Assembly (NCBI GenBank): GCA_048938385.1
Contig: JBHLMG010000020.1
Span: 1-45,078 of the forward strand
Direction of reading: 5' to 3'
Source: Promethearchaeota archaeon
GTDB taxonomy: Archaea > Asgardarchaeota > Hermodarchaeia > Hermodarchaeales > Hermodarchaeaceae
Length of the DNA stretch: 45,078 nucleotides
The notes below the pieces were generated by a model, which was not told the origin of the DNA, made no database searches, and saw only the letters and a list, made by a program, of their open reading frames with translations. Position numbers and translations under genes: made by a program. Below are positions 1,286 through 26,907 of this stretch, in pieces (within the stretch, counting starts at the first letter, position 1; each line of letters begins with the position of its first letter).

Positions 1286-1368
1286 ATTATCAGCCGCCTT
1301 ATGCGAGATTGAAAACAAATACGCATTGCTTTCCAACAATGTGAAAGATGATTTGTTTTACATCATGG
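1286..1368 (+). repeat. Dispersed intergenic element, full-type copy
   Basis: ATTATCAGC at 1286, ATTGAAAACAAAT at 1308, TGAAAGATGATTTGTTTT at 1342; aligns without gaps to 8704-8745. Confidence 0.7.
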
Positions 1369-1663
1369 AATTGGATTAAATGCTCTTCGTTTGAGTTTTC
1401 AAGATAAGGCATCCTTTTTTTCATGAGCTGTGAGTATGAAATCAATTACTTGATGTAAATCCATAAACCCCAACCCTACAATTTGAGCCGATAGTTAGGC
1501 AAAGCCCGATCTTCGTTTTATAGTAAATACCCAGGTGGGAAATGGACTGTGCATTCGCTCCCAAGTTCTGTTCACTTGTAAAGTGATAAAAGAGTTATCT
1601 TCTGAATCACGAATACCTTTCTGCAAAATTAGCCCACAACAACACCATTCGAGAAAAGGGTGT

Positions 1664-4600
1664 TTAGATATATTCCAGCGTTTCAAACGGGTCCGCCCAG
1701 GATTTTCTGTCGGTATCCTGACTTGCCCCTTTCTTTTTCAGACGCTTGACGATTTTATCGGTGGCTGCTACGCTTTCGCCTGTCCTTTTCTGCATGAAGG
1801 CAATGTTGGCTAGGGTAAGGTATGTGCTTGACTGGGACATGTCTGGAATCTTTTGGAACAGTGTTTCTTGGATCTGAAGGGCTTCATGAAAAGCATTCCT
1901 ACTTTGCTGCAAGTGGTTGGTTTCGGCTAATACGATTGCGAAGGTGTTTAACGATAATGCTAAACTGTGATTCGCCATATCCGGGGACTGGGTAACTAAG
2001 CCTCGTTTAATCTCGATGGATTGTTGGATGGTTTTATGGGCCTCGTCAAGTTGGCCGGTTAATCGGAGGATAATGGCCAGATTGTTGAGTAACGGTGCAT
2101 AAAATCGGGGAGTGAACTCGGGGATTTCCTTAGAGAGGGTTTCGGTAAGGATTATGGCTTCTCGAAGACTTTTCTCTGCTTTTCCGAGCTCTTCCTGCTT
2201 TCTGAGGATGATGGCGTAGTTATTGAGAACGATTGCATGCAGTATCGATTGGTGATTGGAACGCAAGGCTTTGAGTGGTTTCGATGTCTTCAACGCTTTT
2301 TGAAGCAGCCCCATTGCGTCAGCCAACCGGGCAGTATCTCTGTATAGGTTCGCAAGACCGTTTAGTCCAGTCACCTCTGCAATAATGGGCCAGAGGGAGG
2401 TTTGGGCTTGTTGCGCTACCTCCTCGGTGGTTTCAAGGGCTTCTCGCAGGGCAATTTCTGCATCATCGTATCGACCTATCCAACGAAGAAAGATACTGTA
2501 ATATATGAGCATTCTTACCAGTTCAAGGCGGTGGAACTCGGGTGCTTTCTCAACCAAATCTCGCTGAATGCTAAGGGCGTCTTGGAAGGCTTCTTGAGCA
2601 TGTGTCGGTCGTCCCGTTTCCGTATACAAGGTGGCGATTTTCCCTTGGTAATTCGCATAATCCTTGAGGTAGACATCCGGTTCGGTGTCTATCAGTTTTT
2701 TAATAATTCCAAGGGCTTCTCGATAGGCATTCTCTGATTCAGGAAGTTGTTTGACATAAAAGGAGAGGAAAAACGCTAAGCGTCCAAGCGATCGGGCGAG
2801 ATTTGGTAAATAGAGTTGAGGCGATTGTTTGGCGAGGTCCCGCCGAATGTTCACGGCTTCTCGATAGGCGATCTCGGCCTTGGAGAAGTTGTTTTGGCGT
2901 ACATTGAGTATTCCAAGGTTGGACAGGCACTGCGAAACATCGATGAGGTATGCATCGGGCTGTGCTTTGGCGAGCTTCTCATAATGGCGCAGTGCTTTCT
3001 GAGTTGCGGCCTCAGCCTCTTTGAATTGGTTGGCGCGCATGAGCATTAGACCAAGGATGAAGCTCCCCTTCGCATATCCAGCTTCTGTAAGCTGCGGTTT
3101 GGTTGTTGAGAGGTCATCGTAGATTTGCAGGGCCCTACGGACAATGGCTTCGCCATCCGTTAGCCTGATGTTAGTAAATTTCAGCCTTGCAAGCCCTAGG
3201 AGTGTTCGCGCAAGCTCCGCACGATGATTATCAGAGGTGTGATCCGTCGGCGCTTCCCATAGACTAAGGGCCTCCTCTAGGGTGGTCTCTGCTTCCATTA
3301 ATCGGTTTGAGTCCTTGAACAGGTAACCTAGCTCGGTCAGGGCGGTTGCGACGAGTTTCTGAGAATGATCCGCAGTCGCCTCTTCAAGGTCTCTAAACAT
3401 GTTGACGGCATTCTGCAACGCTTCTTCGCATTCCACAAAACGCCGTAAGCACCGGAAAGCCTTGCCCCTGAGGAGATGCAACATTGCTCGCCCCTCCGCT
3501 GATTCTAATCTTACCGATTCCAATAATGTGAGTGCTTCAGTGTAGTGCCGTTCTTGCAGAAGGTCCTGAACGATGTCGTTCATGCGGTCCATGGTGTCTC
3601 GTTCGGAGACCAGCGCTCGAACTGACAGCGCCATGCCGCGGAGTATGTAATCGGCTGGGTCAACAGAAGCCTTCTCGATGGCGTGCGTCATTTCATCTGT
3701 CACGATAGGGAGGCGGTCATCAAGTTCTCCTATAACCAGCTCTTTTGCGAGATTGTGGAGAACATAATTTCCGTCTTCCCGTTCTCTGACGAAGCTCAAA
3801 CTCGTCAGTCGATTCCATTGAGCTGTCTTCATCTCGGGTGCGACGATAAGCATCACCTGACGATTAAAAAATGGAAGGAGGGCTGCCCGATCTAATAAAA
3901 CGATGAGATCGGTGGCATCGCGAAAGAGCAGTTTCCATGATTTGAGCCGAACCCCTTCCAGGGTTTCCGCACGAAGATTTTCAACCTCAGCTAGAGAGAG
4001 CGCATCAGCGTCTGCCATGTCGCAGAAGGTACTAATCACATAGGGGTTTCCGCCGCTGACGCTCACAATCTTCCCTTGAATATCACGCTTCTTGATCTTG
4101 CGTCGGCGAAGCAGTTCAACACTACTTTGTTCGTCCAGCTCATTGAGCTCAAAGGTTTCAATCTCCTCAGTATGCTGAGGGGCTAGGGGTTTTCGGCTCG
4201 CCACGACGCCTACGCCATTGTTGAGCGCCCCAAGAAAGACATACCACAACGCCGTTTCGGTGATTGGTTTGCCATTATAATGCCACCGCTCCTTTTCGTC
4301 ATCCACATACTCAAAATGGTCCATCAAAACGACAATCGCATCATCTACTGCCTTCCGGTTGTTGATGTCTTCGAGAAATGCATCTAAAAACAGAAACTGC
4401 GCATGCTCGGGCTCCTTCCAGAGGATTTCCAGCAGTTTTTTGACATGGTCCTTCCCAAGGCGGTTTTCTAACCAATCACCGAGCGTCCCAAATTTACGTT
4501 TCAAAGTTGGAGCTACCTTCTTCGCAACAGCGACAATTGCGTTCCCAACGCTCGTTATTTGTCCAATAAAGGGAACCGCCGAGACCACTTCCTTGATCCA

Positions 4601-4960
4601 TTCTTGCCCTTCTTTCTTGACAGGTTCGACGCCTTCTACAAATCGTTGGCGTAGTTGCCACAGGAAAGTAAAGCGTGGGAGCTTCACTCCCAGCTGGGCT
4701 GCACCCTTTGCCAGAATATTGATGCGACTGTAGATATCAGGATGGACCTGGCAATCTAATGGGATTACAGCATCAAGGTTCGAATGCCAGTAATCTAACA
4801 GCGAACTTTTCCCGATACCGCCCATTCCACGAAGATGAAGGACAACGCTTTGGCCCTTGCAGCGTTTGAGCGCAGCGTCCATCCACTCGAGATACTCCTC
4901 TCGGTTAACAAAAATTCGCGCGGATGGTTCGAAGCGCCGATACAATCTCAGAACCTCCAT
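1664..4960 (-). CDS. STAND-class P-loop NTPase (AAA_16/NB-ARC-like) with C-terminal TPR array
   Basis: N-terminal FVNREE, Walker A GMGGIGKS, Walker B VVLMDHFE, GxP motif GGNP, MHD-like LHNL, then ~600 aa of TPR-like repeats. TATA-like TATAAAA lies ~30 nt upstream of the ATG. Confidence 0.9.
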   Translation of the reverse strand: MEVLRLYRRFEPSARIFVNREEYLEWMDAALKRCKGQSVVLHLRGMGGIGKSSLLDYWHSNLDAVIPLDCQVHPDIYSRINILAKGAAQLGVKLPRFTFLWQLRQRFVEGVEPVKKEGQEWIKEVVSAVPFIGQITSVGNAIVAVAKKVAPTLKRKFGTLGDWLENRLGKDHVKKLLEILWKEPEHAQFLFLDAFLEDINNRKAVDDAIVVLMDHFEYVDDEKERWHYNGKPITETALWYVFLGALNNGVGVVASRKPLAPQHTEEIETFELNELDEQSSVELLRRRKIKKRDIQGKIVSVSGGNPYVISTFCDMADADALSLAEVENLRAETLEGVRLKSWKLLFRDATDLIVLLDRAALLPFFNRQVMLIVAPEMKTAQWNRLTSLSFVREREDGNYVLHNLAKELVIGELDDRLPIVTDEMTHAIEKASVDPADYILRGMALSVRALVSERDTMDRMNDIVQDLLQERHYTEALTLLESVRLESAEGRAMLHLLRGKAFRCLRRFVECEEALQNAVNMFRDLEEATADHSQKLVATALTELGYLFKDSNRLMEAETTLEEALSLWEAPTDHTSDNHRAELARTLLGLARLKFTNIRLTDGEAIVRRALQIYDDLSTTKPQLTEAGYAKGSFILGLMLMRANQFKEAEAATQKALRHYEKLAKAQPDAYLIDVSQCLSNLGILNVRQNNFSKAEIAYREAVNIRRDLAKQSPQLYLPNLARSLGRLAFFLSFYVKQLPESENAYREALGIIKKLIDTEPDVYLKDYANYQGKIATLYTETGRPTHAQEAFQDALSIQRDLVEKAPEFHRLELVRMLIYYSIFLRWIGRYDDAEIALREALETTEEVAQQAQTSLWPIIAEVTGLNGLANLYRDTARLADAMGLLQKALKTSKPLKALRSNHQSILHAIVLNNYAIILRKQEELGKAEKSLREAIILTETLSKEIPEFTPRFYAPLLNNLAIILRLTGQLDEAHKTIQQSIEIKRGLVTQSPDMANHSLALSLNTFAIVLAETNHLQQSRNAFHEALQIQETLFQKIPDMSQSSTYLTLANIAFMQKRTGESVAATDKIVKRLKKKGASQDTDRKSWADPFETLEYI

Positions 4961-5265
4961 CTAAGCACGATATCAGGTAGCTGAGGTTTTATATGTGCTA
5001 GATGGCTGCCTTCTGCCACCAAACTTCGTTATTAAGCGGTTTCCTCAATCCAGTTTGGGATCACAAAGCCTGCATCTATTGCAAGTTTCCTAAGTTCATC
5101 AGTCAGCGTCATTTTTTGGTATCCTTGTACTATCCGTTGTGCATGCGTGAAGTAGGTTATTGCGCCGCTTCTGTTGAATTGTTCTTACGAGCCAATACTG
5201 TGCTTCGATGGTACTTTGCATTAACCAGGCCATTTTTCCGGTCGATATATGCCGGTTAATTGAGG

Positions 5266-5322
5266 TTCGAAGACATATTTACAATTTCTTCATAAAGCCT
5301 GAAAGATGATTTGTTTTTCCAT
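5266..5322 (+). repeat. Dispersed intergenic element, full-type copy
   Basis: TTCGAAGACATAT at 5266 and TGAAAGATGATTTGTTTTT at 5300; same 34-nt offset as the copies at 1308 and 8704. Confidence 0.75.
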
Positions 5323-5460
5323 ATCAAACCTAATATGAGATGTCATCGCATATGTCAACAATCCTCTTCTAAACTCCAACTGTGGAGAATTTGCAGGTGC
5401 CATAGTGCTTATCTACTTTCCAGACCCCTTGGAGTTCACCGTGATTACTGGTGATGTGCT

Positions 5461-6189
5461 ATGAGCACAAGCATTGAAAAGGTGCGTTACGCTGAACTGC
5501 TGCCGCATGAATTCTTGAAACGGTTACACGACAAGCCTGTTGCGTATCTGCCCTTGGGGACATTGGAATGGCACGGCGCGCATCTCCCCTTGGGTTCGGA
5601 TGCTTTCCAGAGTGAGGCATTAATGGTTGCCTGCGCTGTGCAATTAGGCGGTATTGTGATGCCGCCCCTATTTCTCGGACCGGATCAGGTGATTGGGGGA
5701 ACCAATGGGCAGTCCTTCTATGGGATGGATGCCCTCCCCGCTTCCCTACCACCTCGACAACTGGAAGGCAGCTGTTACTGGGTGTCTAAGACCTTCTTCA
5801 AACAACTCGTCGATGTCATTCTAGTCCAACTCAAACGAACCGGTTTCCGCGCCGTCTTCGCTGACGGGCACGGCCCTTCCCGCTGGTCTTGGGTGCAAAA
5901 TATCCCAGAGCGTGAAGCCCACCTCGGCTTAAAGTTGTTTGGCGTCACCGATGACATCGAACGCGCCTGGAGATATCAAATCGACCATGCAGGGCAGAAC
6001 GAAACCTCGATTATGCTGGCGATTCGACCCGACCTCGTGGACCTGTCACGGCTACCACAGGACCCCGCAATTCCAATTGAACGAATCTTGGGGAAAGACC
6101 CACGACGCGCTAAAACGAAATTAGGCCACAAATATTTAGACGCGGCTGTGGAGCTTGTTAAACAACAGTTTGCGAAAGCCGGGATATGA
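5461..6189 (+). CDS. Creatininase family amidohydrolase
   Basis: Motifs PLGTLEWHGAHLPLGSD, DGHG, DHAGQNETS, RPDLV. Confidence 0.9.
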   Translation: MSTSIEKVRYAELLPHEFLKRLHDKPVAYLPLGTLEWHGAHLPLGSDAFQSEALMVACAVQLGGIVMPPLFLGPDQVIGGTNGQSFYGMDALPASLPPRQLEGSCYWVSKTFFKQLVDVILVQLKRTGFRAVFADGHGPSRWSWVQNIPEREAHLGLKLFGVTDDIERAWRYQIDHAGQNETSIMLAIRPDLVDLSRLPQDPAIPIERILGKDPRRAKTKLGHKYLDAAVELVKQQFAKAGI

Positions 6190-6402
6190 GCACAAACCAA
6201 CAATTACTGTTCCAGTAATACACGCTACTTACAAGGGTTACAAAGATATTCAGGTCTTCAAGTATTCGTTGCTTGAGAATATTGAGGCGTATTGAAATTT
6301 TTAACGGGTATTGAAATCCTGCTTCATCTTGAAACTCAAATGTCCTTGTTGTTTTTCCACCATAATTATAGAGCAAAGTTTATATAAACCTTATATGATT
6401 TG

Positions 6403-6429
6403 TATTTTTTTATAATTATATAAAAAATA
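6403..6429. promoter_or_regulatory. AT-rich inverted repeat / promoter region of the antiporter gene
   Basis: TATTTTTT-TATAATTATA-T-AAAAAATA (13-bp arms, one bulge) ends 14 nt before ATG 6443; a second palindrome GTTTATATAAAC lies at 6378-6389. Confidence 0.45.
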
Positions 6430-6442
6430 TCAGTGGGGCCTC

Positions 6443-7720
6443 ATGCTACAGCTTGTAATTGATCTTCCACTATTGTTAGTCGTCAGCCTAGTCGTTGTAT
6501 TGACCGTGATAAGTGCAGAAATCCAACGCCGTCTAGGCATTCCGCAGGTTCTAGGTTTTATCATCACAGGAATTATCTTAGGGCCGCTCTTTCTTGGACT
6601 AATAGACGATAGGCTTCTTGCCCTTGCACCGGTAGTTACTGCTGTGGCCCTTGGGTTCATCGGTTATAACATCGGACATGAACTCAAGTTAAGTGTGGCT
6701 CGGCGCCAATCCCGTAACCTTTTACCCCTTATTTTGGCTCAGAGTTTTGGACCTGCGCTTCTCGTTTTTGTTTTAACACTAATCTGGCTCAAAGATCCAA
6801 TTCCTGCGCTCCTTTTAGGTGCGCTAGCCAGCGCTACGGCACCTGCAGCGACTGCTGATGTAATTTGGGAATATAAAAGCCGTGGACCCGTCACGGACGC
6901 AATCATGTATACGCTGATACTTGATGATGTCATTGCGATTGTTCTTACTAGTATCACAATGAGCATAGTGGTGCTAGTACTCGCCCCCGCATTGTTACCG
7001 GTACCCCTTCTCCTTGCCACTCCTGTGATTGAAATCGGAGGGGCACTACTCCTCGGAGCTGGCGCAGGTCTAGTTCTTGCGTATGTATTGAAACGGGTAG
7101 AAGACCATGGACGCTATATTCTCTTGTTAGTGAGTGTAATTCTTGTCCTTATTGGCATTGCTGAGTTTTTGCACTTTAGTTCTCTACTAACATCCATGGT
7201 GTTGGGAATTGTCCTCGGTAATCTTTCGCCCAACCAAGCACACGATTTGAGTCATGAAGCCGAAAAAATCTTTAGCCCAGTAATTCTCTTTTTCTTCGTG
7301 CTTTTCGGTGCAGGAATGGTTGACCCTGCTGTGTTAGTAGTTGGTGGTATATTCATTCTTGTCACTACTTTACTCTATGTTATTGGGCGTGGATTTGGAA
7401 AATATTTGGGAACCCGGTTGGCCGCAAATATTGGCGACAACCCGCCCACCGTTAAACGATATCTAGGATTATGCCTTTTTAGTCAAGCAGGGGTTGCCGT
7501 GGGATTGAGCGTGGTAATCGCAGATCGATTAAGCCAACTAGGATTACCCCATTATGGTTTTCTCATTATAGGTGTTATCGGTATTTCGACACTAATTTTC
7601 CAAATCTTTGGTCCCCTCGCACTTAAATTCGCCATCCATCGTGCAGGTGAGGCCAATAACAAAATAAAACAAAGTCCAATTGATCAAACAGCAAATAAAG
7701 TAGATCTCGCATTAAATTGA
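6443..7720 (+). CDS. Cation:proton antiporter (Na_H_Exchanger, CPA2-like)
   Basis: ~12-13 hydrophobic segments; ATAPAAT, ILDD and SQAGVAVGL motifs. Confidence 0.9.
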   Translation: MLQLVIDLPLLLVVSLVVVLTVISAEIQRRLGIPQVLGFIITGIILGPLFLGLIDDRLLALAPVVTAVALGFIGYNIGHELKLSVARRQSRNLLPLILAQSFGPALLVFVLTLIWLKDPIPALLLGALASATAPAATADVIWEYKSRGPVTDAIMYTLILDDVIAIVLTSITMSIVVLVLAPALLPVPLLLATPVIEIGGALLLGAGAGLVLAYVLKRVEDHGRYILLLVSVILVLIGIAEFLHFSSLLTSMVLGIVLGNLSPNQAHDLSHEAEKIFSPVILFFFVLFGAGMVDPAVLVVGGIFILVTTLLYVIGRGFGKYLGTRLAANIGDNPPTVKRYLGLCLFSQAGVAVGLSVVIADRLSQLGLPHYGFLIIGVIGISTLIFQIFGPLALKFAIHRAGEANNKIKQSPIDQTANKVDLALN

Positions 7721-7817
7721 AGCGCGATATTAGATTCTTGTAATCGCCATTTTTTAACTTATCATCAGCTTTTTGGTGTAACTTCACACCTCTTTTGAAC
7801 AGCTAAGCTTTCATTGT

Positions 7818-7853
7818 GTTATAGGTAAATCAGAATTATCTTCGAAGACAAAT
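7818..7853 (+). repeat. Dispersed intergenic element, left-half copy
   Basis: GTTATAGG at 7818, TTCGAAGACAAAT at 7841 (23-nt offset). Confidence 0.6.
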
Positions 7854-7957
7854 AGCTGGTTATCAGCCCATCATTATAAAAGAGTCAAATGTTGACACCA
7901 CCCCTCAGCTAAAATCTAATATTGCTGCTTTGATCAATCGGTTCAAGGTGAGACAGT

Positions 7958-8632
7958 GTGACCAAGAAAAACCCCACTAACGAAGCCAAATACATGAGAG
8001 ATTTCACCAAATTGGTGAAGAGGGTAAAGAAACATGTTGTATCCCAAATCGGGGAAACGGCGGAGGTTATCCTTCATGAAAGCAGAAACGAATACCAAAG
8101 AATTATCCCACAAATTCCCTCAGCAGAGAATCTAGAGCCATTCACCAGATTCCTCATCTCGACGGGGCAGTATCTCGCCGTCTACAGAGTCCTTCGAAAA
8201 CATGGATTCACATCTAAAGACGCGGGAGAACTAATTTATTATATTACAGAAAAGCTCATCGCATCGTACCCTAGGTTCTTAACCCGTTTCCTATCACCTG
8301 ATATCTTCTCACAAAAATACATTGAGAAGGTGAGACGGGGTGCGAAGGAATCACAGAGGAAGCCCATCGGAGGCTATGTTTTCACCTATGTTGATGGATC
8401 ACCTGCCTTCAACTATGGTGTAGACTATACCAATTGTGGGGTCCATAAGTTCCTTACTGAAATGGGCGCTCCCGAGTTGACACCTTACATATGTGCAATG
8501 GATATTCTAAGTAGTGAACAGTTAGGATGGGGTCTTAAAAGAACCATGACCATCGCTGAAGGCGGTAACATATGCGATTTCCGCTTCAGAAAAAGTATGC
8601 CAACGGAAGTCTCATCGAGCGTGATAAAGTGA
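7958..8632 (+). CDS. L-2-amino-thiazoline-4-carboxylic acid hydrolase-like (V4R-related) protein
   Basis: C-terminal CGVHKF...ICAMD...LKRTMTIAEGGNICDFRF; GGTGA SD before GTG. Confidence 0.8.
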   Translation: MTKKNPTNEAKYMRDFTKLVKRVKKHVVSQIGETAEVILHESRNEYQRIIPQIPSAENLEPFTRFLISTGQYLAVYRVLRKHGFTSKDAGELIYYITEKLIASYPRFLTRFLSPDIFSQKYIEKVRRGAKESQRKPIGGYVFTYVDGSPAFNYGVDYTNCGVHKFLTEMGAPELTPYICAMDILSSEQLGWGLKRTMTIAEGGNICDFRFRKSMPTEVSSSVIK

Positions 8633-8680
8633 GAATATGGTTAAGTCTAACCAGAGTTCCTACAGTCGGTTTGAGCAGGT

Positions 8681-8766
8681 GTTATCGGCGAACCGGAATT
8701 TAATTCGAAGACATATGTGTGGTTTTTACCAATGCTGTGAAAGATAGATTTGTTTCGCATCAATGG
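8681..8766 (+). repeat. Dispersed intergenic element, full-type copy
   Basis: GTTATCGGC at 8681, TTCGAAGACATAT at 8704, TGAAAGATAGATTTGTTT at 8738; lies between convergent genes. Confidence 0.75.
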
Positions 8767-8896
8767 CTTAGTGAGAAACAAGAATTTCGAGGGTATGGTC
8801 ATCCACGATAAAACTTGGTTTTTATGAGGGCATTCTCTTTATTTTGCTAAAAAAGAGGGAGCCGAAAGGACACCCTATGAGTTGTCTCTTTTGAGT

Positions 8897-9880
8897 TTAT
8901 GGTGTCCTTTTACGGCGAATTGCGATTACTGCGATTGCGACCAACACGATGGCTATGATGGCGGTTCCAAGTACAATCTCTATTGTTATCAGAGGAAACG
9001 GTATGAGGGGGAGAACGGCAATTCCGAGTTTCGGATCATGGAGAATGTTCGTACCGTGTGGATAACTCAACACAATGAGTGAACCTTCTGATGAGTCGAT
9101 TACCGAAGAATTGACTGGGGCGGGTTCTCCGTCAACGATGGCTTCTTTGAGCCAAGAATAGTAGCTACTGATCGTGTCAGAGTGAATTTCGATTTCCTCT
9201 TCGGTCTCGTGGGATTCGGTCTCAATCTCTCGTTCCGCGCTAGCCTCGGCAATTAAGGCTAACGCTCCATCTTCTTGGTAGGGGAAATTCTCGATGACGA
9301 TAGTGATTTTCATCTCGGTTGGATAGATGAAAGACTCGTTGAGGACCGCATAGGTCGGAAAGATATTTGCAATAATCTGGAAGGTGTAACTTTCGTTGAT
9401 TATGTGAGCTTCGAGTTGGTATCCGAGTTCTCCATCGTCTGATGTAATTTGGGTGAGTATTGGGTCACTGTAATTACGTGAAGTAAGATCGATGGTCCCT
9501 CCGGATACGGCTTCCCCAGGATTATAGACGCCATCTGCGTTTTGATCGATGAACTCGACTAACTGTTCGAATTCAACTTGTAATTCGAGCTCGTATTCAG
9601 TGGCATTGATTTCGGTGCTATATCCAAGTTCTAGCTTGATGCCCTCATTGGCTGCAAAGCTAATTTCGAACTCGTTTTCATTAGGTTCCTCGCCAAATTC
9701 GGAATGAACCGTGATCGTATTATCCTCTGTTTCTATGCGCAGTTCGCGTTCTTCGGCGTCTTCAATGTCGTCGTCGATTCCGTCATTGTCGTCGTCGCTG
9801 AGGCTGTTGCCATTCACTTGAAGTAGGGGAACGCTAGAGAGAATTACTAATAGTAGGAGTATCGTTGCTAGTTTCTTCAT
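8897..9880 (-). CDS. Acidic cell-surface protein with signal peptide and C-terminal membrane anchor
   Basis: MKK + hydrophobic signal; DDDNDGIDDDIED and DQNADGVYNPGE Ca-binding-like motifs; several N-x-S/T sequons; Pro-rich linker, TM helix, RRKR tail; GAGGTG SD. Confidence 0.85.
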   Translation of the reverse strand: MKKLATILLLLVILSSVPLLQVNGNSLSDDDNDGIDDDIEDAEERELRIETEDNTITVHSEFGEEPNENEFEISFAANEGIKLELGYSTEINATEYELELQVEFEQLVEFIDQNADGVYNPGEAVSGGTIDLTSRNYSDPILTQITSDDGELGYQLEAHIINESYTFQIIANIFPTYAVLNESFIYPTEMKITIVIENFPYQEDGALALIAEASAEREIETESHETEEEIEIHSDTISSYYSWLKEAIVDGEPAPVNSSVIDSSEGSLIVLSYPHGTNILHDPKLGIAVLPLIPFPLITIEIVLGTAIIAIVLVAIAVIAIRRKRTP

Positions 9881-9980
9881 GTAAAGTCACCTCTAATCGC
9901 TTATTTTGCGATTTTACAGGAAAATAGCCGTATTCTGTCGATTTAAGCTTATGTTTCAAGTTTTTTTGACTCGTCGGAAC

Positions 9981-10035
9981 TTGACAGTCAATTTTTCCTG
10001 ACTTGCTCAAGGTCAATTCTTTTTGACTGTCAAAA
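9981..10035. promoter_or_regulatory. Two TTGAC-W-GTCAA palindromes, putative operator
   Basis: TTGACAGTCAA 9981-9991 and TTGACTGTCAA 10023-10033, 42 bp apart, upstream of the surface-protein gene. Confidence 0.55.
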
Positions 10036-10884: not shown

Positions 10885-11054
10885 CTCAAATAATATGCTA
10901 GAAAATTTTAATTCTGAAGCAAATCGAAAAATTTCTTGTAAAAAGCTTTGTAAATTACTAATGAGATTTGGATGCTCAATTAGAAAACCGCAGATGGTTT
11001 GAGTAAAAGGCGTGGATTTTCGGCTTCTGGAACTAAAAAACTCGTTTTTTGAGC

Positions 11055-11089
11055 GTTATCCGCTATTTCATTTTATTTCGAAGACCTAT
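11055..11089 (+). repeat. Dispersed intergenic element, left-half copy
   Basis: GTTATCCGC at 11055, TTCGAAGACCTAT at 11077 (22-nt offset). Confidence 0.65.
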
Positions 11090-11195
11090 TTGAAGAGGTT
11101 CTGAAGGGGACAAGATGTCAGGTTCGAGAATTCATCGATTTAGGCAACGCCCAATTTGTAGCCATTGTTGAAAAAACAGGCAATGGCGCCTTATT

Positions 11196-16552: not shown

Positions 16553-16556
16553 AACT

Positions 16557-17243: not shown

Positions 17244-17245
17244 CA

Positions 17246-18034: not shown

Positions 18035-18037
18035 CTC

Positions 18038-18859: not shown

Positions 18860-18978
18860 TTGGTGGACCAGCCGAATTCTTATGCAGATTTTTGGCTTTC
18901 AGGAGAGGAGGCTAAGGCATGGCTTTTTTTATTTGCCAGCAGATGTGTCGTTTCCTGTCTTAAAATGGCGAGGTAGTA

Positions 18979-19296
18979 TCAGAGTTTCATCGCAGCTCTG
19001 ACTTCATAGTGTTGTGAGTAGGCGTCAAATCGGGAAAGCAAGGCTCGTGCTTGGTGTGGAACCACAGCGGCTTCATAGTCTTCTCCTGCAAAGGTCTTTA
19101 CTGCTTTAAGGTTGTCGAACCACATGATCGTTACGAACTCGACTTCATTGTTCAGAGTTCGACGGAAGAGGTGGATGCCTCGATAACCTTGTATTTGTCG
19201 ATCGCGGATATTGGTGAAGATTTCGCGTTTCAGTAAATTCTCGTAAGCTTCAGCGTTTGCTAGGGTTGTCCAGCCATGCCAAACTCGACTAATCAT
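18979..19296 (-). CDS. Antibiotic biosynthesis monooxygenase (ABM)-like protein
   Basis: MISRVWHGWT...EFVTIMWFD...FAGEDYEAAVVP pattern; alternative start at 19311. Confidence 0.85.
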   Translation of the reverse strand: MISRVWHGWTTLANAEAYENLLKREIFTNIRDRQIQGYRGIHLFRRTLNNEVEFVTIMWFDNLKAVKTFAGEDYEAAVVPHQARALLSRFDAYSQHYEVRAAMKL

Positions 19297-19595
19297 GTTC
19301 AACTTCTCCATTTGGGGTTGTTTCGTGTTTAGCTATGATGCAGGTGCTGTAAAGTTCGAAGGTAATTCGATGGTACTGGTGATTTGGGCGACCACATTGT
19401 ATCGTTTTTTGGAGGTATCCTTCCAGCATCTAAGGTGAAGGCGCCAATCGGTTAATGGTGATTTCGTTCCCAGGCTCTTTTCACTGAGAGATATTCACTA
19501 AGGTGGCTTTTTCGGTACTTAACCTTTGAGTCTCTGGGCGTCAATAGGTTTTTCCGATAACTAGCGGATATGAGTGTTCTACGAGGGACCACGCT

Positions 19596-20630
19596 GTGGA
19601 TGTTGAGGTAAAGAATAGGCTACGGATGCGGTTGCGGAGTCATCGGCGTAATCTGCGACGCCATCTTCACCGCGCCTCTGCGTTTTTGGTCAAATGTCAG
19701 ATTCGAGAACCATATGTTGTACGAGGATTGTTGCGGGGAACGGTTTGTCCATGGGAGATTGGAGTGATGGAACCGTATGGGTTTACTCTGCAAGAAGACT
19801 TTCACGATACCTTGGAAGCTATGTGGGTCTGGACCTACTACACAAAGGTTTCAAAACGACCCACCTTTGTTGAGAACATCCAGGCGGGTTGGAAGTATGT
19901 GACGGCGAATTTTGAGCGTTTCGTGCCAACTAACCAGGCTATACAAGGGTATTATGATTGCGCTCAACTGCTCCACACGAGCACTCTTTATGATGATGTC
20001 TTTGCAGACAAGTCGTATCGTCGGTGGATGGATATCGCGGGCAATCGTCTAGCTTGGTACCTCTCTACGCTTCGACCAGCTAGGGGTCGAGAATACTCAG
20101 ATCCGTGGTGGATGACAGTCTGCCTGGCTGGTGCGGCAAAGCAAGTGGGTAATCATGGGTGGAAAGAGGTCGCTCAACAGTTTGTGAACAGGACGATATT
20201 GAGGAGCAAGCAGCCTTTCCGGCTAATCGAGAAGGAGCCACGGCATCGCGGGCCAGGAGGACACGACTTCTTTTCTCAGAACGCAACGAAGATTCAGGCT
20301 TTATTAGCCTGTACCCCTACGAAGGAAGAGTTAGAAGATTTGTTGATCAACACGATCCTACCCCTGACTCCAACGCAGTTTGTAGCACGGCGCACCGATG
20401 AAAATGCATGGAATGCCAGCGTTGCGGCAGCGCTCGGAAAGTGTTTTGCTGTGACTCGTTCACCGGAGTTTCTACAACGGTACTTCGCAATTATGGATGA
20501 ACTCCAACAACGGGATGAGCAACAATCAGCTGCGCTCCCACGGGATACTCGGACCCTTGTCCGTGAATCATGGGTCACCTACTTCTACGCCCGCGCTTAC
20601 ACCGCTGTTCTCTCACCCTCAATTCCTTAA
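19596..20630 (+). CDS. Hypothetical protein, probably a helical-repeat (alpha/alpha toroid) enzyme
   Basis: 344-aa ORF with aromatic/acidic loop-helix motifs (EDFHDTLEA, YDCA, DPWW, DENAWN, RESW); no family recognised with certainty. Confidence 0.65.
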   Translation: MDVEVKNRLRMRLRSHRRNLRRHLHRASAFLVKCQIREPYVVRGLLRGTVCPWEIGVMEPYGFTLQEDFHDTLEAMWVWTYYTKVSKRPTFVENIQAGWKYVTANFERFVPTNQAIQGYYDCAQLLHTSTLYDDVFADKSYRRWMDIAGNRLAWYLSTLRPARGREYSDPWWMTVCLAGAAKQVGNHGWKEVAQQFVNRTILRSKQPFRLIEKEPRHRGPGGHDFFSQNATKIQALLACTPTKEELEDLLINTILPLTPTQFVARRTDENAWNASVAAALGKCFAVTRSPEFLQRYFAIMDELQQRDEQQSAALPRDTRTLVRESWVTYFYARAYTAVLSPSIP

Positions 20631-20685
20631 GGAGTTCTTGACTCCCTCAGATGTGGGCTTTAGGGAGATAGATGCAGGCTAGAGT

Positions 20686-21591
20686 TCATTGCTGGTCAGA
20701 TGTGTCGTACTTGTTGTGTGAAGTTCTCTTCCTTTGATGATAATAAATAACGGTGATAATGAAGATTAAGGCAATTATGATTGGAATGATAAGGAGATCC
20801 CGGCTAACTGGTAATTCCATGTCGATCAGCGCTGGTAGCGTTGTCATCAAAGTTCGTGAGTTTAGCACGATTAGTATGCTGCCAACAAGCGTACCTAAGA
20901 GAACCGGAGGTACTCGTTTACATGTGTAGGCGGCAACTGGAGCGGCAAGAATACCACCAATGATTAACGGTATGGTGATGAACCAGAGAAAGTTCTCAAA
21001 GCCCACCGTAAACCCGAAAGTAATGACTATAGCGACGGTAGTGAAGAATTCGGCGATGTTTACTGACCCGATGATAACCCGTGGCTCCCTTTTGTTGGCA
21101 GTAACTAGGGTGGATGTGCATATCGGACCCCACCCGCCGCCACCAAAAGCATCTACGGTGCCCCCGATTAACCCTAAGAACAGAAGGAACCTTTTTGAGA
21201 ATTCGCCTGTATGGAGTGCAATGTGTTTCTTCAAGAGAAACCTAACAAAGATTCTAGCGCCTAGAATTAAGAGAATAATTGCGACAAAGGGGCTAACGAG
21301 TTCATTGGATAGAGTTGCCAAGAAGTACGCCCCGATAATCCCACCAATAATGCCAGTACATGTCAAGGGAATAGCTATTCTCGTCTCGACATTACCGAAG
21401 CGTAAATGCGAGACACCTGAAGCCAAGCTGGCAAAGATTTCAGAAGTATGCACTGAAGCGGACACCAGCGCCGGTAATAACCCAGCAGCAATGAGAAAAG
21501 ATGCCGAGGAAGCCCCATAACCCATTCCTAGCGCGCCATCAATGTATTGAGCGAAGAAGCCGACTATCGCGATGATAATGAATGTCCACAT
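20686..21591 (-). CDS. TauE/SafE (TSUP) sulfite exporter family protein
   Basis: DGALGMGYG, SASVH, DAFGGGGWGP, GSVNIAEF; ATG 21591 with GAGGTGA SD. Confidence 0.92.
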   Translation of the reverse strand: MWTFIIIAIVGFFAQYIDGALGMGYGASSASFLIAAGLLPALVSASVHTSEIFASLASGVSHLRFGNVETRIAIPLTCTGIIGGIIGAYFLATLSNELVSPFVAIILLILGARIFVRFLLKKHIALHTGEFSKRFLLFLGLIGGTVDAFGGGGWGPICTSTLVTANKREPRVIIGSVNIAEFFTTVAIVITFGFTVGFENFLWFITIPLIIGGILAAPVAAYTCKRVPPVLLGTLVGSILIVLNSRTLMTTLPALIDMELPVSRDLLIIPIIIALIFIITVIYYHQRKRTSHNKYDTSDQQ

Positions 21592-21612
21592 ACACAATCA
21601 CCTCGTAATAGG

Positions 21613-21819
21613 TTATTCGGGTTTGTGTTTCCCCTCCCCCACTGGTTTGGGAAGGATGAGGACCCGATTATCCAGGAAGAGGATCCATCGTATTCGGTCA
21701 CCGTCTTTGAGTCCAAGAGCATCCACGATCTCCTTGGGGACCGTGGTTCGCCTTCTCGTTTTACGGATAGTCAAGGTGGTTTCTGTGATGTATTCCACTT
21801 CATCTAGATTGATTTGCAT
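21613..21819 (-). CDS. AbrB/SpoVT/MazE-type DNA-binding protein
   Basis: RTTVPKEIVDALGLKDGDRIRW swapped-hairpin signature. Confidence 0.85.
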   Translation of the reverse strand: MQINLDEVEYITETTLTIRKTRRRTTVPKEIVDALGLKDGDRIRWILFLDNRVLILPKPVGEGKHKPE

Positions 21820-21855
21820 GATATTTTACTCAGAAAAGCGGGTAGGTTAAATACT

Positions 21856-21881
21856 TTGGTTTTATACCAATATATATTGGT
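21856..21881. promoter_or_regulatory. Overlapping palindromes upstream of the AbrB-TauE operon
   Basis: Perfect 16-bp ACCAATATATATTGGT at 21866-21881 overlapping TTGGT-N5-ACCAA at 21856-21870. Confidence 0.55.
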
Positions 21882-22050
21882 TTTTCAATAGATGAGGAAG
21901 ATGCACCATAGGGAAGCCCATTCGTGAAAAGAAGATTTGGGAAAGAAGGCGCGGAGTAGCGCCAACAGAACTGTTGTTCTTACAAACTTTGTATTAACGA
22001 AGGGGGAGAAGCTGAAGAGGGCGCGTCGGCCACACCACAGGCCAGTGTGC

Positions 22051-23241
22051 CTAAGATACCAACTCAATCGTAGTAGCAATGGTAGCTTGGCAGATTTTGG
22101 TCAAGAACTCGAAGTCGAGGGTGTCGATGGTATCGGAAGGTCGGTGGTAATGTTTGGTTCGGAACTCTCCGGAATCAGTGAAAAAGAGGGCAGGAATTCC
22201 AGCGCGCCAGAATGGGGCGTGATCGGACCGAAGTATGTCACCCATGATTTGAGCGGCTTGTTCGTAGCTGAAGGCGCCTTGAAGGCAGGCGTAGGGGAGG
22301 TTGATGGTTTCTCGTCGCGCGTTAGTGCAAAAGGATTCGGCGAGTTCTGCGGAGTTTTGATCACCGATGATTATGAGAAAATCACCGACTGAGAGGGCGT
22401 CGTTGGTTCCGTGGATGTTGAATAGAGAGGGAGAGATCCCTTTGGGAACTCTCTGGGAGTGTTCGTCTTTAGTGGTATAACCAATTGTGTCGTTACAGAG
22501 GACGCCTTTCACGGGTTTCTTGGTACGGAGGGCTTCATCAACCCAGTAACTACTTCCGATGAGGGCAGATTTGCCTGGCCAGTTGTTCACAGTCAAGTCT
22601 TTGTAGATTTTTTCAGTTTCCCGAAGAAACGCTAAATCCGTTTTGGTGAGTTCTTTTTCAATGAGTGCAGTTGCCTGCGCAAACGCAACAGGTAAAGGCG
22701 TCCCGGAAAGGAAGAGTTCTTGGCGCTTTTTTCGATGTTTTCCCAATAGTTTGCTCAAGTGCCAAGAGGTGTACCGACCCCTATCATCCCTAATTCCGTA
22801 TTGGCGTTCAAGGGTTTTCAATTGTAGTTGTCGCCCTGGATGCCCTTCTTCTAGGGTGAAGCTGATGAACCGGGCGTTACCAGACCAACTGGCTTCTTGT
22901 AAGATACGGGCTGACTCCAACATCACAGCGATAGCTGAAGCGTTATCATCGGCTCCTGGTGCTGTCTCAATAGTATCGTGATGGCTGATAACGAGGAGTT
23001 CAGGCTTTGAACCATCTCCAATGCAGCCCTCAATGTTACTGAAGGTTTGGTTGAGACCTTCAAGCTTGAATTCTTGAACATTGGTGCTCAACCCATATTG
23101 TTGGAACTCCTTTAGGATGTAGTCTTCAGCCTGCTTGAGGGCATCAGGTGTTTTCAGCGGATGTCTCACGCCTTCGAGATTCAGTATATGAGTGTAGAGC
23201 TGTTCTACATCCACGGATGCAATGACGGCTTCGATGTCCAA
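22051..23241 (-). CDS. M28 family metallopeptidase
   Basis: SHHD, GADDNAS, FTLEE, NDTIG, SDHAPF, YHRPSD; GGTGA SD before TTG. Confidence 0.9.
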   Translation of the reverse strand: MDIEAVIASVDVEQLYTHILNLEGVRHPLKTPDALKQAEDYILKEFQQYGLSTNVQEFKLEGLNQTFSNIEGCIGDGSKPELLVISHHDTIETAPGADDNASAIAVMLESARILQEASWSGNARFISFTLEEGHPGRQLQLKTLERQYGIRDDRGRYTSWHLSKLLGKHRKKRQELFLSGTPLPVAFAQATALIEKELTKTDLAFLRETEKIYKDLTVNNWPGKSALIGSSYWVDEALRTKKPVKGVLCNDTIGYTTKDEHSQRVPKGISPSLFNIHGTNDALSVGDFLIIIGDQNSAELAESFCTNARRETINLPYACLQGAFSYEQAAQIMGDILRSDHAPFWRAGIPALFFTDSGEFRTKHYHRPSDTIDTLDFEFLTKICQATIATTIELVS

Positions 23242-23346
23242 TACTACTCACCACTAATTATAGTAAAGCCATCAATTTACATTAAAACTATGGAGATTTT
23301 GAGGCAACAGTTTTGCTAACACACCTAGAAACTTCCTCACATTTCT

Positions 23347-24117
23347 TCATGATGTTATAGTTCGCTGATTTACGGTCTGAATTTTAGTTAAGACCCCTTT
23401 GATTTGCTGAAGGATGGGTTCTCCAATCTCATGATTGAGGGTCTTGAAGATGCTGGTCTCGTACTTGTAGACCAGGTGATGGAGTTTGCGGAGGGGCCCT
23501 TTTGGCGTGATGGTTTCATGCCAGAAAAGGCGTCCGGGCTGATTGGTAAGACCAACTTCGTAGGAGAGGTTGATGATGTCGATGTAGGGACACCAGAGAT
23601 CGATATTTTCAAACTGACCTTCACCCGGATACTTCCAAGCAGCTAGTTGGATGTAGAAAGCCCCTGCGGTTCCAGCAATCCATTGATTATGGTGAATATA
23701 ATGTAAAGTCTTGTGGCGAGAGGACTCCCATAATGCGATGATGACATCGATATTCTCTGAGCCATTGAACGGAATGTCGGATTTGGAGGGAACGGGATTG
23801 TATCGTTGTCCACGTCCTTCGGGATGACTGTGAAAAGTGCCTAAGGGCCAATGGACGGTGAGGTAATCCCATGTTCTGCGGACACGATCTGTGCGCTGAT
23901 GGTGGAAATGAACATGGTTCAGAGTTCGCCTTGTTGTTTGCAGTGGAATGGCGAGTTTTACGACGAGCTTGCCAGAGGTGGGAAAATGGTCACCAAATAG
24001 GAGCCCACCGACTTCAGATTTGTACCCTTCAATAGCAGCACTGATTACGCTAATAAAACTGTCAGACGATAAGAGTACATCCAACCTAGCATCACCTGAG
24101 GGAAGCGCTGTGATCAT
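23347..24117 (-). CDS. JAB/MPN+ (JAMM) domain metalloprotease with C-terminal extension
   Basis: EVGGLLFG and LGTFHSHP...PSKSD JAMM signature. Confidence 0.85.
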   Translation of the reverse strand: MITALPSGDARLDVLLSSDSFISVISAAIEGYKSEVGGLLFGDHFPTSGKLVVKLAIPLQTTRRTLNHVHFHHQRTDRVRRTWDYLTVHWPLGTFHSHPEGRGQRYNPVPSKSDIPFNGSENIDVIIALWESSRHKTLHYIHHNQWIAGTAGAFYIQLAAWKYPGEGQFENIDLWCPYIDIINLSYEVGLTNQPGRLFWHETITPKGPLRKLHHLVYKYETSIFKTLNHEIGEPILQQIKGVLTKIQTVNQRTITS

Positions 24118-24123
24118 TTCGTG

Positions 24124-24169
24124 AAAAAATAGGAAAAACGCACGACCCCGAATAAGGTGGTATCGTGCG
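24124..24169 (-). terminator. Stem-loop plus U-tract between the microprotein and the JAMM gene
   Basis: CGCACGA (24139-45) and TCGTGCG (24163-69) arms; on the - strand followed by TTTTTCCTATTTTTT. Confidence 0.6.
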
Positions 24170-24210
24170 ATGGGACACTGGTATTACAAATGGATCGGAC
24201 CAACTAGGTC

Positions 24211-24282
24211 TTACTTCTTAGCTTTTCCTTTGTCCCGACCTTTCTTTTGCTTTGATTCTTTACCCTTTGGCGTTTTTGCCAT
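24211..24282 (-). CDS. 23-aa Lys-rich microprotein MAKTPKGKESKQKKGRDKGKAKK
   Basis: ATG...TAA read manually; GGTGA SD 6 nt upstream; 10 of 23 residues are Lys. Confidence 0.6.
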   Translation of the reverse strand: MAKTPKGKESKQKKGRDKGKAKK

Positions 24283-24674
24283 TGCGGTTCACCGATAATA
24301 CTGGATCTAGTCAATGACGCCTATCATTAACTATCCAATTTTGCGTGACTCATCAACAATGCATTTATCCCTTATTCAGTTCAAGATAGGTCCTGTTTCG
24401 TGTTAGAAATATTAGAAACCGGCGAAAATTAGGCTTATTTTACCAATCTAGTGCAAATTACACAATTCTTACCTTGATTCGACAAATTTGTGTTACTTAT
24501 CGTTAAATGGAAACTTAGAATAACTCGAATAAGGTGTCACATTTTGTACATTGGCGTAATTTCCCATCATTGACTAGTTGAATTTCATGGATGTTAATTT
24601 GCTATTTCTGTCTGTATAATTAGGAACCGAATACTTATCATTGACCACCCATAAGAAGAGCCATTCAAAGATTA

Positions 24675-25532
24675 TTGGAGAGCGCAGCTTTGCCAGAGCC
24701 ATTAGTAGCGATTGTTGGCGGATCAGGTCTGTATTCCCTACTTGAGAGAAGCAAAACCCGTTGGCTATCGACGCCATTTGGTGCCGCAGCACCTATAGAA
24801 CTCGGTGAGATATCAGGCGCCTTGGTCGCTTTCCTGAACCGACATCAGTCGCCTGACCGGAATGTTACAGCTTCACACACCATACCACCACATGCAGTCA
24901 ACTATCGAGCGAACTTGCTCGCGCTTCGCCAGTTGGGTGTACGATATGTGCTCGTTACGACAGCAGTAGGAAGCCTTCGAGAGAAATTACCACCCGGACA
25001 GCTGATAATGCCTCATCAACTCCTAGATTTAACCAAGTCCCGTGCCTCTACTTATTATGATGGAAGCACGGGATTTGAGATTGAAGGAAAACCCGTTTCC
25101 AGAGTTGCTCATATTGATGTGACGAATCCCTTTTGCTCGACCCTTAGGCGTATCCTAATAGATTCTTGTAAGCAGCTTCATTTACGAGCCATCGATTCAG
25201 CGACCTATGCGGCTATGGAGGGGCCACGGTTTGAAACCGCTGCTGAAATTACGATGCTTCGTCAACTGGGGGCAGATATCGTCGGGATGACCTTGGCGCC
25301 TGAAGCGTTCCTTGCACGTGAACTCGGGATGTGTTATGTTGCCTGTTCCGTCGTGACGAACTACGCCGCAGGCCTTGTTAAAACTCCCATCACTCATGAA
25401 GAAACCCTACGGACCTTCAAGAGCCAAATCGAACAGGTTCAAAAAATGCTTAAGCTAGCAATTCAGAACCTACCACCCACTCAATCTGATTGCAATTGCT
25501 ACGAGGTGTGGAAAAGGGCTACTCAAGACTGA
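24675..25532 (+). CDS. MTAP/PNP family nucleoside phosphorylase, probably 6-oxopurine/methylthioinosine type
   Basis: GGSG, RH, PPHAVNYRAN, EGPRFETAAE, VGMT, and C-terminal VTNYAAG (Asn rather than the DYD of true MTAP). Confidence 0.9.
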   Translation: MESAALPEPLVAIVGGSGLYSLLERSKTRWLSTPFGAAAPIELGEISGALVAFLNRHQSPDRNVTASHTIPPHAVNYRANLLALRQLGVRYVLVTTAVGSLREKLPPGQLIMPHQLLDLTKSRASTYYDGSTGFEIEGKPVSRVAHIDVTNPFCSTLRRILIDSCKQLHLRAIDSATYAAMEGPRFETAAEITMLRQLGADIVGMTLAPEAFLARELGMCYVACSVVTNYAAGLVKTPITHEETLRTFKSQIEQVQKMLKLAIQNLPPTQSDCNCYEVWKRATQD

Positions 25533-25690
25533 CCTAGTACTAGCAATAAAAAATTCGAAAAAGTGTAAGGCTCACGCCTTTAAGCCACGCTGTTGAAAAT
25601 CCGTAGAATTGCAAGTGTTTCCTCTCAGTCAAAGTTGCCGAATGCAATCACCATATTAATGTCAGGAGTAGATGGGAGGGAGGTGATTAA

Positions 25691-26671
25691 ATGGAGTTAG
25701 ATGGTTTTAGGACCTTTTTACAAGATCGAAAGCAGGAAGAGAAGGATATTGACGCGGCGATTAGCATTATTGGCGAGTTTAATCGTTTTCTTAGTAATCA
25801 AAAGAAACCGATAGAAAAAGCCTCCTATGAGGATTTGTACAATTTTTCAGAGTATTTAATGGAGAAAGGGAAGAACACATTCGAGAATTTTATAGCCCTC
25901 TTTCGGTTTGGTCAGTTCCAAAAGAACAAGGAAGTAGAAATTGGATCCTTAGAGGTTCTCGATGGTCTCGAAATGATCCCTAACTTTTCAAAACGACTGA
26001 TTGAGGAATTTGGTGAACCTCTGCGGAATGAAATTTTTGAGGAGATCGAAATGCCCCCTTTAGGGATACGACCTCAACAAAAGGTGGAGGTAACTAAAAA
26101 ATTGGTTGAGCGATTTCTTGCAAAAGTAGATTACGAGAGATGTAGAATGTTCTTTGAGGTAGGGTTGCGAGATAAATATACCAAATCCTATGAGAAGCCC
26201 ATTGAGCTGTTTGAAGAAGTAAAGGATATTGATGAGTTTCTACGAATCCGCCATCAAACTCTAGTGAAGAACTTGGAAGAACATCGAAAGGAAGGCACTC
26301 TGTTTTTTACTCAAGAAGTCGATGACGAGGTAATCTCTTATGTTCAACATAATAAATCCATTGAGTCAGGAACCCGGAAGGGTGATCGAGTAATCATTAC
26401 AAAGATCCCGTACCTGACAAAGCAGTTTCTTCACGAAACGAATCCTCGGAAGAAACGGTATAATTTCTGTCACAACCCCTGGATTCGTCATGCATTGTTA
26501 GAGGAAGATCAACCAATTGATCCGGTGTTTTGCGGATGTAGTGCTGGGTATTTCAAAAATTTCTGGGAAGCCGTATTGAAGCAGCCTGTCAGAGTTGAGG
26601 TGCTCAAATCGGTTATTCGAGGAGATTCAATTTGTGAATTCGCCCTACATTTACCTCGAAACTACTGCTGA
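25691..26671 (+). CDS. DUF6144/V4R-like Cys-motif protein
   Basis: CHNPW, FCGCSAGY, SVIRGDSICEF; GGAGGTGA SD. Confidence 0.75.
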   Translation: MELDGFRTFLQDRKQEEKDIDAAISIIGEFNRFLSNQKKPIEKASYEDLYNFSEYLMEKGKNTFENFIALFRFGQFQKNKEVEIGSLEVLDGLEMIPNFSKRLIEEFGEPLRNEIFEEIEMPPLGIRPQQKVEVTKKLVERFLAKVDYERCRMFFEVGLRDKYTKSYEKPIELFEEVKDIDEFLRIRHQTLVKNLEEHRKEGTLFFTQEVDDEVISYVQHNKSIESGTRKGDRVIITKIPYLTKQFLHETNPRKKRYNFCHNPWIRHALLEEDQPIDPVFCGCSAGYFKNFWEAVLKQPVRVEVLKSVIRGDSICEFALHLPRNYC

Positions 26672-26679
26672 AGTACACC

Positions 26680-26832
26680 TCATGTTTGGCGTTTTCGTAA
26701 ACGCCACACAACTACTACCACGATTACAGCACTAATGGTGATAGTTCCACCAATTCCGACTATCAAGAAGTATGGAGGGATGATTGGCGTGGTGAAGAGG
26801 GCAGAGATGCTTAACCCCGCGATAATAGCCAA
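26680..26832 (-). CDS. 50-aa membrane microprotein or orphan C-terminal anchor fragment
   Basis: TTG with AGGAG upstream; MAIIAGLSISALFTTPIIPPYFLIVGIGGTITISAVIVVVVVWRLRKRQT. Confidence 0.5.
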   Translation of the reverse strand: MAIIAGLSISALFTTPIIPPYFLIVGIGGTITISAVIVVVVVWRLRKRQT

Positions 26833-26874
26833 GTTGCTCCTGAATTACATCAATATTACACCCTTATTCCAAGC

Positions 26875-26907
26875 GTTATCTGTTAATTAGATGTGTTTCG
26901 AACTACC
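26875..26907 (+). repeat. Dispersed intergenic element, left-half copy
   Basis: AGCGTTATC with GTTAT at 26875, TTCGAA at 26897 (22-nt offset); closest to the 11055 copy. Confidence 0.5.

Follow-up and report, generated by a model that had tools for sequence, protein, structure and literature searches.

A repeated element between the genes of the window

The window analysed here is the whole 45-kb contig G000:C17 (45,078 nucleotides) of a Hermodarchaeota-type Asgard archaeon, whose metagenome-assembled genome (MAG), G000, comprises 2.48 Mb in 51 contigs with 45.8% G+C; all the genomes compared with it are also MAGs. The window proteins include archaeal-type domains (Pfam), and a P-type ATPase of this genome shares 82-85% identity with proteins from MAGs of Thorarchaeota and Hermodarchaeota. 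Read along the + strand, the window falls into two parts: a partly eroded cassette array (1..31600), which is a mosaic of one-to-four-gene blocks having homologues, in different order, in the arrays of other genomes (blastn, Pfam), and a conserved core flank (31670..45078) with genes for GNAT, DinB, radical SAM, M24 peptidase, thioredoxin reductase and other proteins (DNA genome search, Pfam). The genes of the first part are punctuated by a repeated intergenic element, which is probably the junction site of a one-directional chromosomal gene-cassette array found in a single Asgard genus, with site-specific recombination or target-specific insertion taking place at its short core.

An alignment of 71 full copies, taken from ten genomes of this genus (G000 included), gives a consensus of 99 columns in three parts. 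The 5' module (about 36 nt) opens with a T5 run, followed by GTGTTAT..GC and a variable stretch; the core, TTTCGAAGAC, is nearly invariant, with TTCGAAGAC as its 9-bp form; and about 20 nt past the core lies an 11-9-11 palindrome, with arms ATGATGTGAAA and TTTCACATCAT around a conserved 9-nt spacer, GATGATTTG, or a 10-nt variant of it. Many copies consist of the 5' module and core alone and a few of the palindrome alone, which accounts for the two classes of copies distinguished in an earlier note on this DNA. The spacing read in that note (22-23 nt from GTTAT to the box, 34 nt from the box to the right-hand box) matches the modal distances of the family, 23 nt from GTTAT to the box and 42 nt from the box to GATTTG.

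Eight intergenic copies, all on the + strand as the earlier note had it, lie in the window, three of them complete and five partial or eroded; the multi-box motif is recovered at the places where it had been noticed by exact words, degenerate boxes and nhmmer profiles alike. Exact copies of the 17-mer TGAAAGATGATTTGTTT lie at 1342 and 5300, and a third, at 8738, has one extra base inserted (3 matches vs 0.25 expected from shuffles); boxes of TTCGAAGAC type with 0-3 mismatches are found on the + strand at 5266, 7841, 8704, 11077, 14823 and 15649, the copy at 1308 carrying the variant ATTGAAAAC. The 13-mer box by itself is not significantly enriched (22 matches vs 15 expected); it is the composite motif that stands out strongly from the shuffled background. 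A profile seeded on four copies matches 1265-1380, 5223-5338 and 8663-8775 at E = 1e-23 to 1e-26, and its further matches in G000 fall on contigs C38 and C14 only. A second profile, built from 75 sequences that are mostly copies of relatives (3 from the window), detects genome-wide the copies at 1271, 5229 and 8672 (E about 1e-15), 11045 (3e-4) and 7809 (5e-3), and when run on window 11-33 kb alone adds those at 14799, 15614 and 26867, again on the + strand (E 0.003-0.009).

The complete elements are located at 1271..1369 (profile positions 1-99, E 9e-15; 78.7 bits with a sequence-only covariance model, CM), with the variant core ATTGAAAAC at 1308-1316 and the dif-arm palindrome at about 1336-1366; at 5229..5319 (E 3e-15), with core TTCGAAGAC at 5266-5274 and an eroded right arm of the palindrome; and at 8672..8765 (E 2e-15), with its core at 8704-8712 and the 10-nt spacer variant of the palindrome at about 8734-8761. 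The partial element at 7809..7894 (E 0.005, profile 7-80) has a 5' module and a core with one mismatch (7841-7849) but no palindrome, and that at 11045..11092 (E 3e-4), reduced to 5' module and core (11077-11085), forms the right end of a two-gene cassette, 8704-11088. Three further copies have eroded 5' modules, with core TTCGAAGAT (14823-14831) in the copy at 14799..14851 (E 0.003 in the 22-kb search), core GTCGAAGAT (15649-15657) in that at 15614..15669 (E 0.009), and the half core TTCGAA (26897) in that at 26867..26902 (E 0.007), which is situated between the shared blocks 25652-26655 and 26954-28479. An intergenic stretch at 19332..19363 (+), reading GCTAT, 18 nt and TTCGAAGGT, could be one more degenerate junction, although this is a weak pattern match only.

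The stem of the palindrome is variable at positions 69/91 and 66/94, which change independently (T-A 20, C-A 13, T-G 13, C-G 7); this argues on sequence grounds that the palindrome acts in double-stranded form, as a site for a dimer-type protein, and has not been selected as a hairpin. RNAalifold predicts no pairs in the element alignment, mutual information reveals no paired columns, and the folding z-scores of the window copies are unremarkable (+0.4 to -1.2). The structured noncoding RNA that the earlier note had considered is consequently rejected: The element has no Rfam match at the gathering score, no significant fold (z-scores of only -0.4 to -1.2 in that reckoning) and no covariation in the stem. 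An eroded miniature inverted-repeat transposable element (MITE), or an insertion sequence (IS), fares no better, since the alignment lacks terminal inverted repeats, the copies are clustered and co-oriented rather than scattered in both orientations, and neither Y1 transposase nor serine recombinase was found in five genomes (DDE families not searched). The window contains no tRNA genes either, whereby an att site derived from a tRNA is also rejected.

Co-oriented arrays and the breakpoint at the core

With the CM, the element is detected in 13 of 14 genomes of the same genus and in none of four genomes of the sister genus, while elsewhere in the phylum the matches are only marginal. The arrays retrieved contain 123 CM matches, and within each of 19 contigs the orientation is shared almost without exception (124 of 125 nhmmer hits, spaced at a median of 1436 bp), so that the earlier reading of copies in one orientation holds well beyond the window. 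A sole inverted partial copy, L106:13868-13970 (G006:C58), has an opposite-strand palindrome module abutting a 5' module, perhaps left by an inversion or by a head-to-head junction. In genome-wide profile searches the copies are restricted to arrays on a few contigs, a distribution that disposes of the suggestion of a replichore-polarised chromosome motif. One or two genes usually lie between copies, in either direction (one gene per element in G003:C83), and the adjacent genes have the same direction as the element in 38 cases and the opposite in 36 for full sites, 14 and 15 for partial sites. Gene direction is thus independent of the element, and a promoter or terminator role for the neighbouring gene does not fit, as the earlier note had argued from far fewer copies.

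When 376 kb of arrays from nine genomes are compared by blastn, many blocks of 0.3-4 kb prove to be shared; they are bounded by elements and arranged in a different order in every genome. Blocks with homologues in the arrays of other genomes tile the window from 5,000 to 31,600; examples are 5266-6246, 6365-7688, 8704-11088, 11842-12733, 12908-13359, 14860-15572 and 18985-19318, followed by 20784-21881, 24629-25532, 25652-26655, 26954-28479, 28638-30574, 30750-31193 and 31338-31553. The eight window sites are block borders, for instance at 5266, 8704, 11088, 14860 and 15572. A cassette with a small open reading frame (ORF) is common to six loci of five other genomes; its homology starts at 14860-14916 in five of these loci and only at 15164 in the sixth, ending at 15561-15630. 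Beyond the array, from 31.7 kb onward, the core flank is collinear across the genus, and in G012:C42 and G003:C67 it comes after the array with unchanged orientation, from which we deduce that the platform has a fixed locus and a fixed polarity. A placement between vps4 and ESCRT-III does not apply to this family, the vps4 orthologues being on other contigs.

Not one of the 75 informative pairs of elements between genomes keeps both neighbours: The left flank only is homologous in 40, the right flank only in 35. The element at 5229..5319 is a case in point, its left flank being homologous to G012 and its right flank to G008; paired with L102:15781 it is homologous on the left only, and the block 5266-6246 is 86.8% identical to G008. 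Another block shared with G008 starts exactly at 8704, within the core of the 8672..8765 element, and ends at 11088. Across the whole set, the high-scoring segment pairs most often have their 5' ends at profile positions 35-39 and their 3' ends at 45-49, which is the core, and explicit pairs such as L108:8787 vs L106:17015 and L102:19526 vs L118:1900 break there too, with homology either running through the 5' module to stop at the core or beginning at the core and continuing onward. The breakpoint therefore has a fixed position in the motif, the TTCGAAGAC core, and the genes in between are not syntenic in relatives; together with enrichment and co-orientation, these results support the leading idea of the earlier note, namely that the copies are scars or substrates of gene capture. 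Moreover, the 5' module is linked to the block upstream of it (identity 0.72 vs 0.59), and the optional palindrome travels with the downstream block. Module linkage and core breakpoint together define the cassette as an optional palindrome, one or more genes, a 5' module and a core.

Three window cassettes are 80-87% identical to G008 over genes and spacers, as against 67-70% for the adjacent core regions, a gap which suggests recent exchange of cassettes between species. The two-gene cassette 8704-11088, encoding an unknown 327-aa protein and an ArsR helix-turn-helix (HTH)/Yip1 membrane protein, is 87% identical over genes and spacers to G008:C66:16728-19114, next to about 68-70% in the flanking core regions. 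The recurrent families of the arrays are luciferase-like oxidoreductases, ABC ATPases, P-type ATPases, a repeat protein, Ras, LRR and TBP, without any nuclease or recombinase among them. The TBP paralogue (Pfam TBP, E 1e-56) is present in arrays of three genomes with 88-93% mutual identity (L107:14677-15228 on G006:C58, L108:1-502, L112:9211-9712 and L117:3966-4517). Genes for Ras-family small GTPases occur as array cassettes in relatives (L104:16029-16553, L106:1129-1653, L117:1218-1637), and one lies in the core flank of the window (43954-44565, - strand); LRR proteins are likewise found as cassettes (L102:1704-2567). In the window, a gene cut by the contig start (3-998, - strand) encodes a protein built of repeats of ~52-55 aa with a DNA period of 156-165 nt in four copies; it has no Pfam match, and its homologues of about 460-500 aa form cassettes in four other genomes. 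A different kind of observation comes from the contig end G000:C38:26630-26673, which stops exactly at the core (...GTTCGAAGAC). It is the only contig to do so, most array contigs ending elsewhere; the assembly graph probably branches there at a cassette junction, which hints at variation of the downstream cassette within the population.

A XerA-linked site and the explanations weighed

The window contains no recombinase, as was noted before, and neither do the array borders examined, where G014:C11, G011:C42 and G006:C58 have ordinary genes only. The gene that is kept upstream of the first site in two genomes encodes a secreted, membrane-anchored protein, and another ORF at an array border is DUF6144-like. 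In each of five genomes, 85-91% complete, there is one strong tyrosine recombinase (PF00589), situated on a non-array contig; no serine recombinase and no Y1 (HUH) transposase was found in them. The enzyme of G000 passes the NCBIfam threshold for XerA (269.7 bits, cut-off 220) and fails that for the integron integrase TIGR02249 (154 vs 265); of the recombinases sought, XerA alone occurs in all five genomes.

The dif site consists of two 11-nt arms separated by a 6-nt spacer (PMC8371274), and a site of this 11-6-11 geometry, built with the arms of the cassette palindrome, is found exactly once in each of five genomes of the genus; reversed-pattern controls give no match. It lies 4-10 kb from xerA in G000, G008 and G006. 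In G000 its position is C26:26209-26236 (locus L127:1501-1528), about 10 kb from xerA (C26:15.8-16.7 kb), and it reads ATGATGTAAAA CAGGGG TTTCACATCAT; corresponding sites near xerA are in G008:C32 and G006:C16, with arms conserved and a spacer that varies between species. The flanks of the dif-like sites have no conserved core. Since the palindrome arms ATGATGTGAAA and TTTCACATCAT are identical to the arms of this xerA-linked site, the cassette palindrome is, to judge by its letters, a carrier of XerA/dif-type arms.

How, then, would cassettes move? In the explanation that we favour, a cassette would consist of one or two genes or, at times, an operon, lying in either orientation, and would end with the 5' module and the core TTCGAAGAC, many cassettes beginning with the 11-9-11 palindrome about 20 nt past the preceding core. 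Cassettes would be joined head to tail at the core, so that an excised circle would carry the whole 100-bp element, with the crossover core flanked by two arm-like modules as in a phage attP. Insertion, loss and interspecies exchange would then take place at the core, either through conservative site-specific recombination or through insertion strictly specific for this target, and the fixed orientation of the site would set the polarity of the array. The array of the window would be old and partly eroded, hence its only three complete sites. Whether XerA is the protein that binds or acts upon the palindrome is a more tentative proposition, and we regard as similarly speculative the wider idea that XerA, on dif-type arms borne by the cassettes, drives an integrase-free platform of gene capture through which ordinary genes are stored up and exchanged between species, eukaryote-like ones for Ras-family GTPases, LRR proteins and the TBP paralogue included.

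This scheme needs to be qualified, for several observations weigh against it. The breakpoint lies ~25 nt upstream of the XerA-type palindrome, outside its spacer, whereas the crossover of dif-type sites falls at the spacer edges, and the spacer itself measures 9-10 nt vs the 6 nt of dif, a misfit that makes XerA catalysis at the palindrome doubtful; in combination, these two features leave XerA as a candidate binder and not a demonstrated catalyst. At junctions in which both elements have a palindrome, the stretch from core to palindrome is assignable to neither side. About 50 array and border ORFs examined include no recombinase gene, the head of the array being in none of the captured contigs. 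Assembled contigs of public runs give no direct evidence of excision or circles, their joints having sides shorter than 30 nt; they do contain two joints with sides of 24-26 nt at the palindrome and one contig with a full element after the 11077 core, all of which could come from other organisms that have copies of the repeat. Finally, the core with its downstream ATATAT resembles an archaeal B recognition element (BRE) and TATA box and may have a secondary role as a promoter.

Among other explanations, the one that survives best is target-specific transposition instead of reciprocal recombination, to which we assign a low probability even if the present data do not separate the two processes. 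A unit with the palindrome as its left end and the 5' module plus core as its right end would insert right after an existing TTCGAAGAC and thereby add a new target. The core does lie 20-25 nt 5' of an 11-bp-stem palindrome at the start of a cassette, with another core at its end, a geometry resembling the ends of IS200/IS605 elements, in which a hairpin and a short site of cleavage or targeting are separated by a constant distance; insertion beside an existing core would also explain the strict polarity and the arrays equally well. However, no Y1 (HUH) transposase was found in the five genomes, the palindrome lacks the compensatory changes expected of a selected single-strand hairpin, many cassettes are without it, and its arms match the XerA/dif-type site.

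Somewhat less probable still is a regulatory or insulating element, combining a BRE/TATA-like promoter, an operator palindrome and a T5 terminator, with the shuffling as a by-product of homologous recombination between repeats. The T5 run that opens the 5' module is an archaeal termination signal, the core followed by ATATAT has the look of a BRE/TATA pair, and the palindrome could serve as operator. Yet gene direction is independent of element direction, copies are found also between convergent genes, and the element is confined to arrays instead of lying upstream of genes throughout the genome. The breakpoints, too, fall at the 9-bp core and not at the 31-bp palindrome, which as the longest and best conserved part would be favoured for homologous exchange. 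Least probable of all is a descent of the copies from the 3' end of an anchor gene located at the head of the array, duplicated by a capture process akin to that of homing endonucleases and since decayed: Column-wise, 47 of 71 copies keep one frame of the profile open, as against 5-6 of 71 for each of the other two frames, but the ungapped sequences break this frame in most copies, the modal distance from core to palindrome is out of frame, stops occur 9-10 codons past the core, conservation has no three-base periodicity, no copy ends a long ORF (that on C14 is intergenic), and the dif-type arms already explain the palindrome.

Comparison with known systems

No description of the element was found in the literature searched, and the systems to which our preferred explanation may be compared are of three kinds. 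Phage attP sites of lambda-like tyrosine integrases resemble the junctions in having a short crossover core between conserved arm modules, joined on the circular form. They differ in that we found no gene for a heterobivalent integrase or excisionase, the mobile units are single genes and not phages, and the core is not surrounded by core-type inverted repeats. A second kind comprises integrative mobile elements exploiting Xer (IMEX; CTX, TLC, GGI) and the pdif modules of Acinetobacter plasmids, which share with the present cassettes two 11-bp arms of the host Xer/dif type, accessory genes and the lack of a dedicated recombinase gene. In our arrays, however, the spacer is of 9-10 nt instead of 6, the arrays lie away from the dif locus, homology breaks at a distinct 9-bp core, located some 25 nt upstream of the palindrome, and the sites are all direct, whereas pdif modules are flanked by inverted sites.

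A further likeness is with sedentary chromosomal integrons and clusters of attC sites lacking integron integrases (CALINs), which are known in archaea and enriched in Asgard lineages (Ghaly et al. 2022; PMC9668308). As in these systems, short cassettes carrying unrelated accessory genes are lined up in one direction at a fixed place in the chromosome, each cassette having its own semi-conserved site with a short invariant crossover core and a variable part that travels along, and an order of cassettes that differs between relatives. There are also differences. None of the 71 full copies has R'' (RYYYAAC) and R' (GTTRRRY) boxes 45-135 nt apart on either strand, so that the earlier statement that the motif matches neither integron attC nor pdif stands on both counts, pdif differing in spacer, site orientation and crossover. 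The whole element does not fold into an end-to-end hairpin (z -0.6 for the top and -0.9 for the bottom strand), and no IntI was found, with the array head not captured and the only universal tyrosine recombinase scoring as XerA. The crossover lies in the middle of the repeat, which leaves the site split between two cassettes. Integron cassettes typically have promoterless ORFs that point one way. The genes of the present arrays are oriented about 50:50, unlike the ORFs of archaeal integrons, which generally have the same orientation (PMC9668308).

What would follow from such a platform? Were the proposed scheme confirmed, it would provide a mechanism for the high turnover of accessory genes and for gene flow in Asgard genomes, and a new use of Xer-type binding sites. 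In practical terms, the 9-bp core and the 100-bp site are defined units that can be tested in vitro, and the arrays, which break metagenome assemblies, are recognisable with the profile obtained here. To our knowledge, the integron is the one well-understood platform for gathering single genes at a fixed place on the chromosome; by comparison, a lineage that lies near the root of eukaryotes seems to collect genes with a different site, without an integron integrase and in either gene direction. If a platform driven by XerA were indeed at work, it would amount to a second, independently evolved integron.

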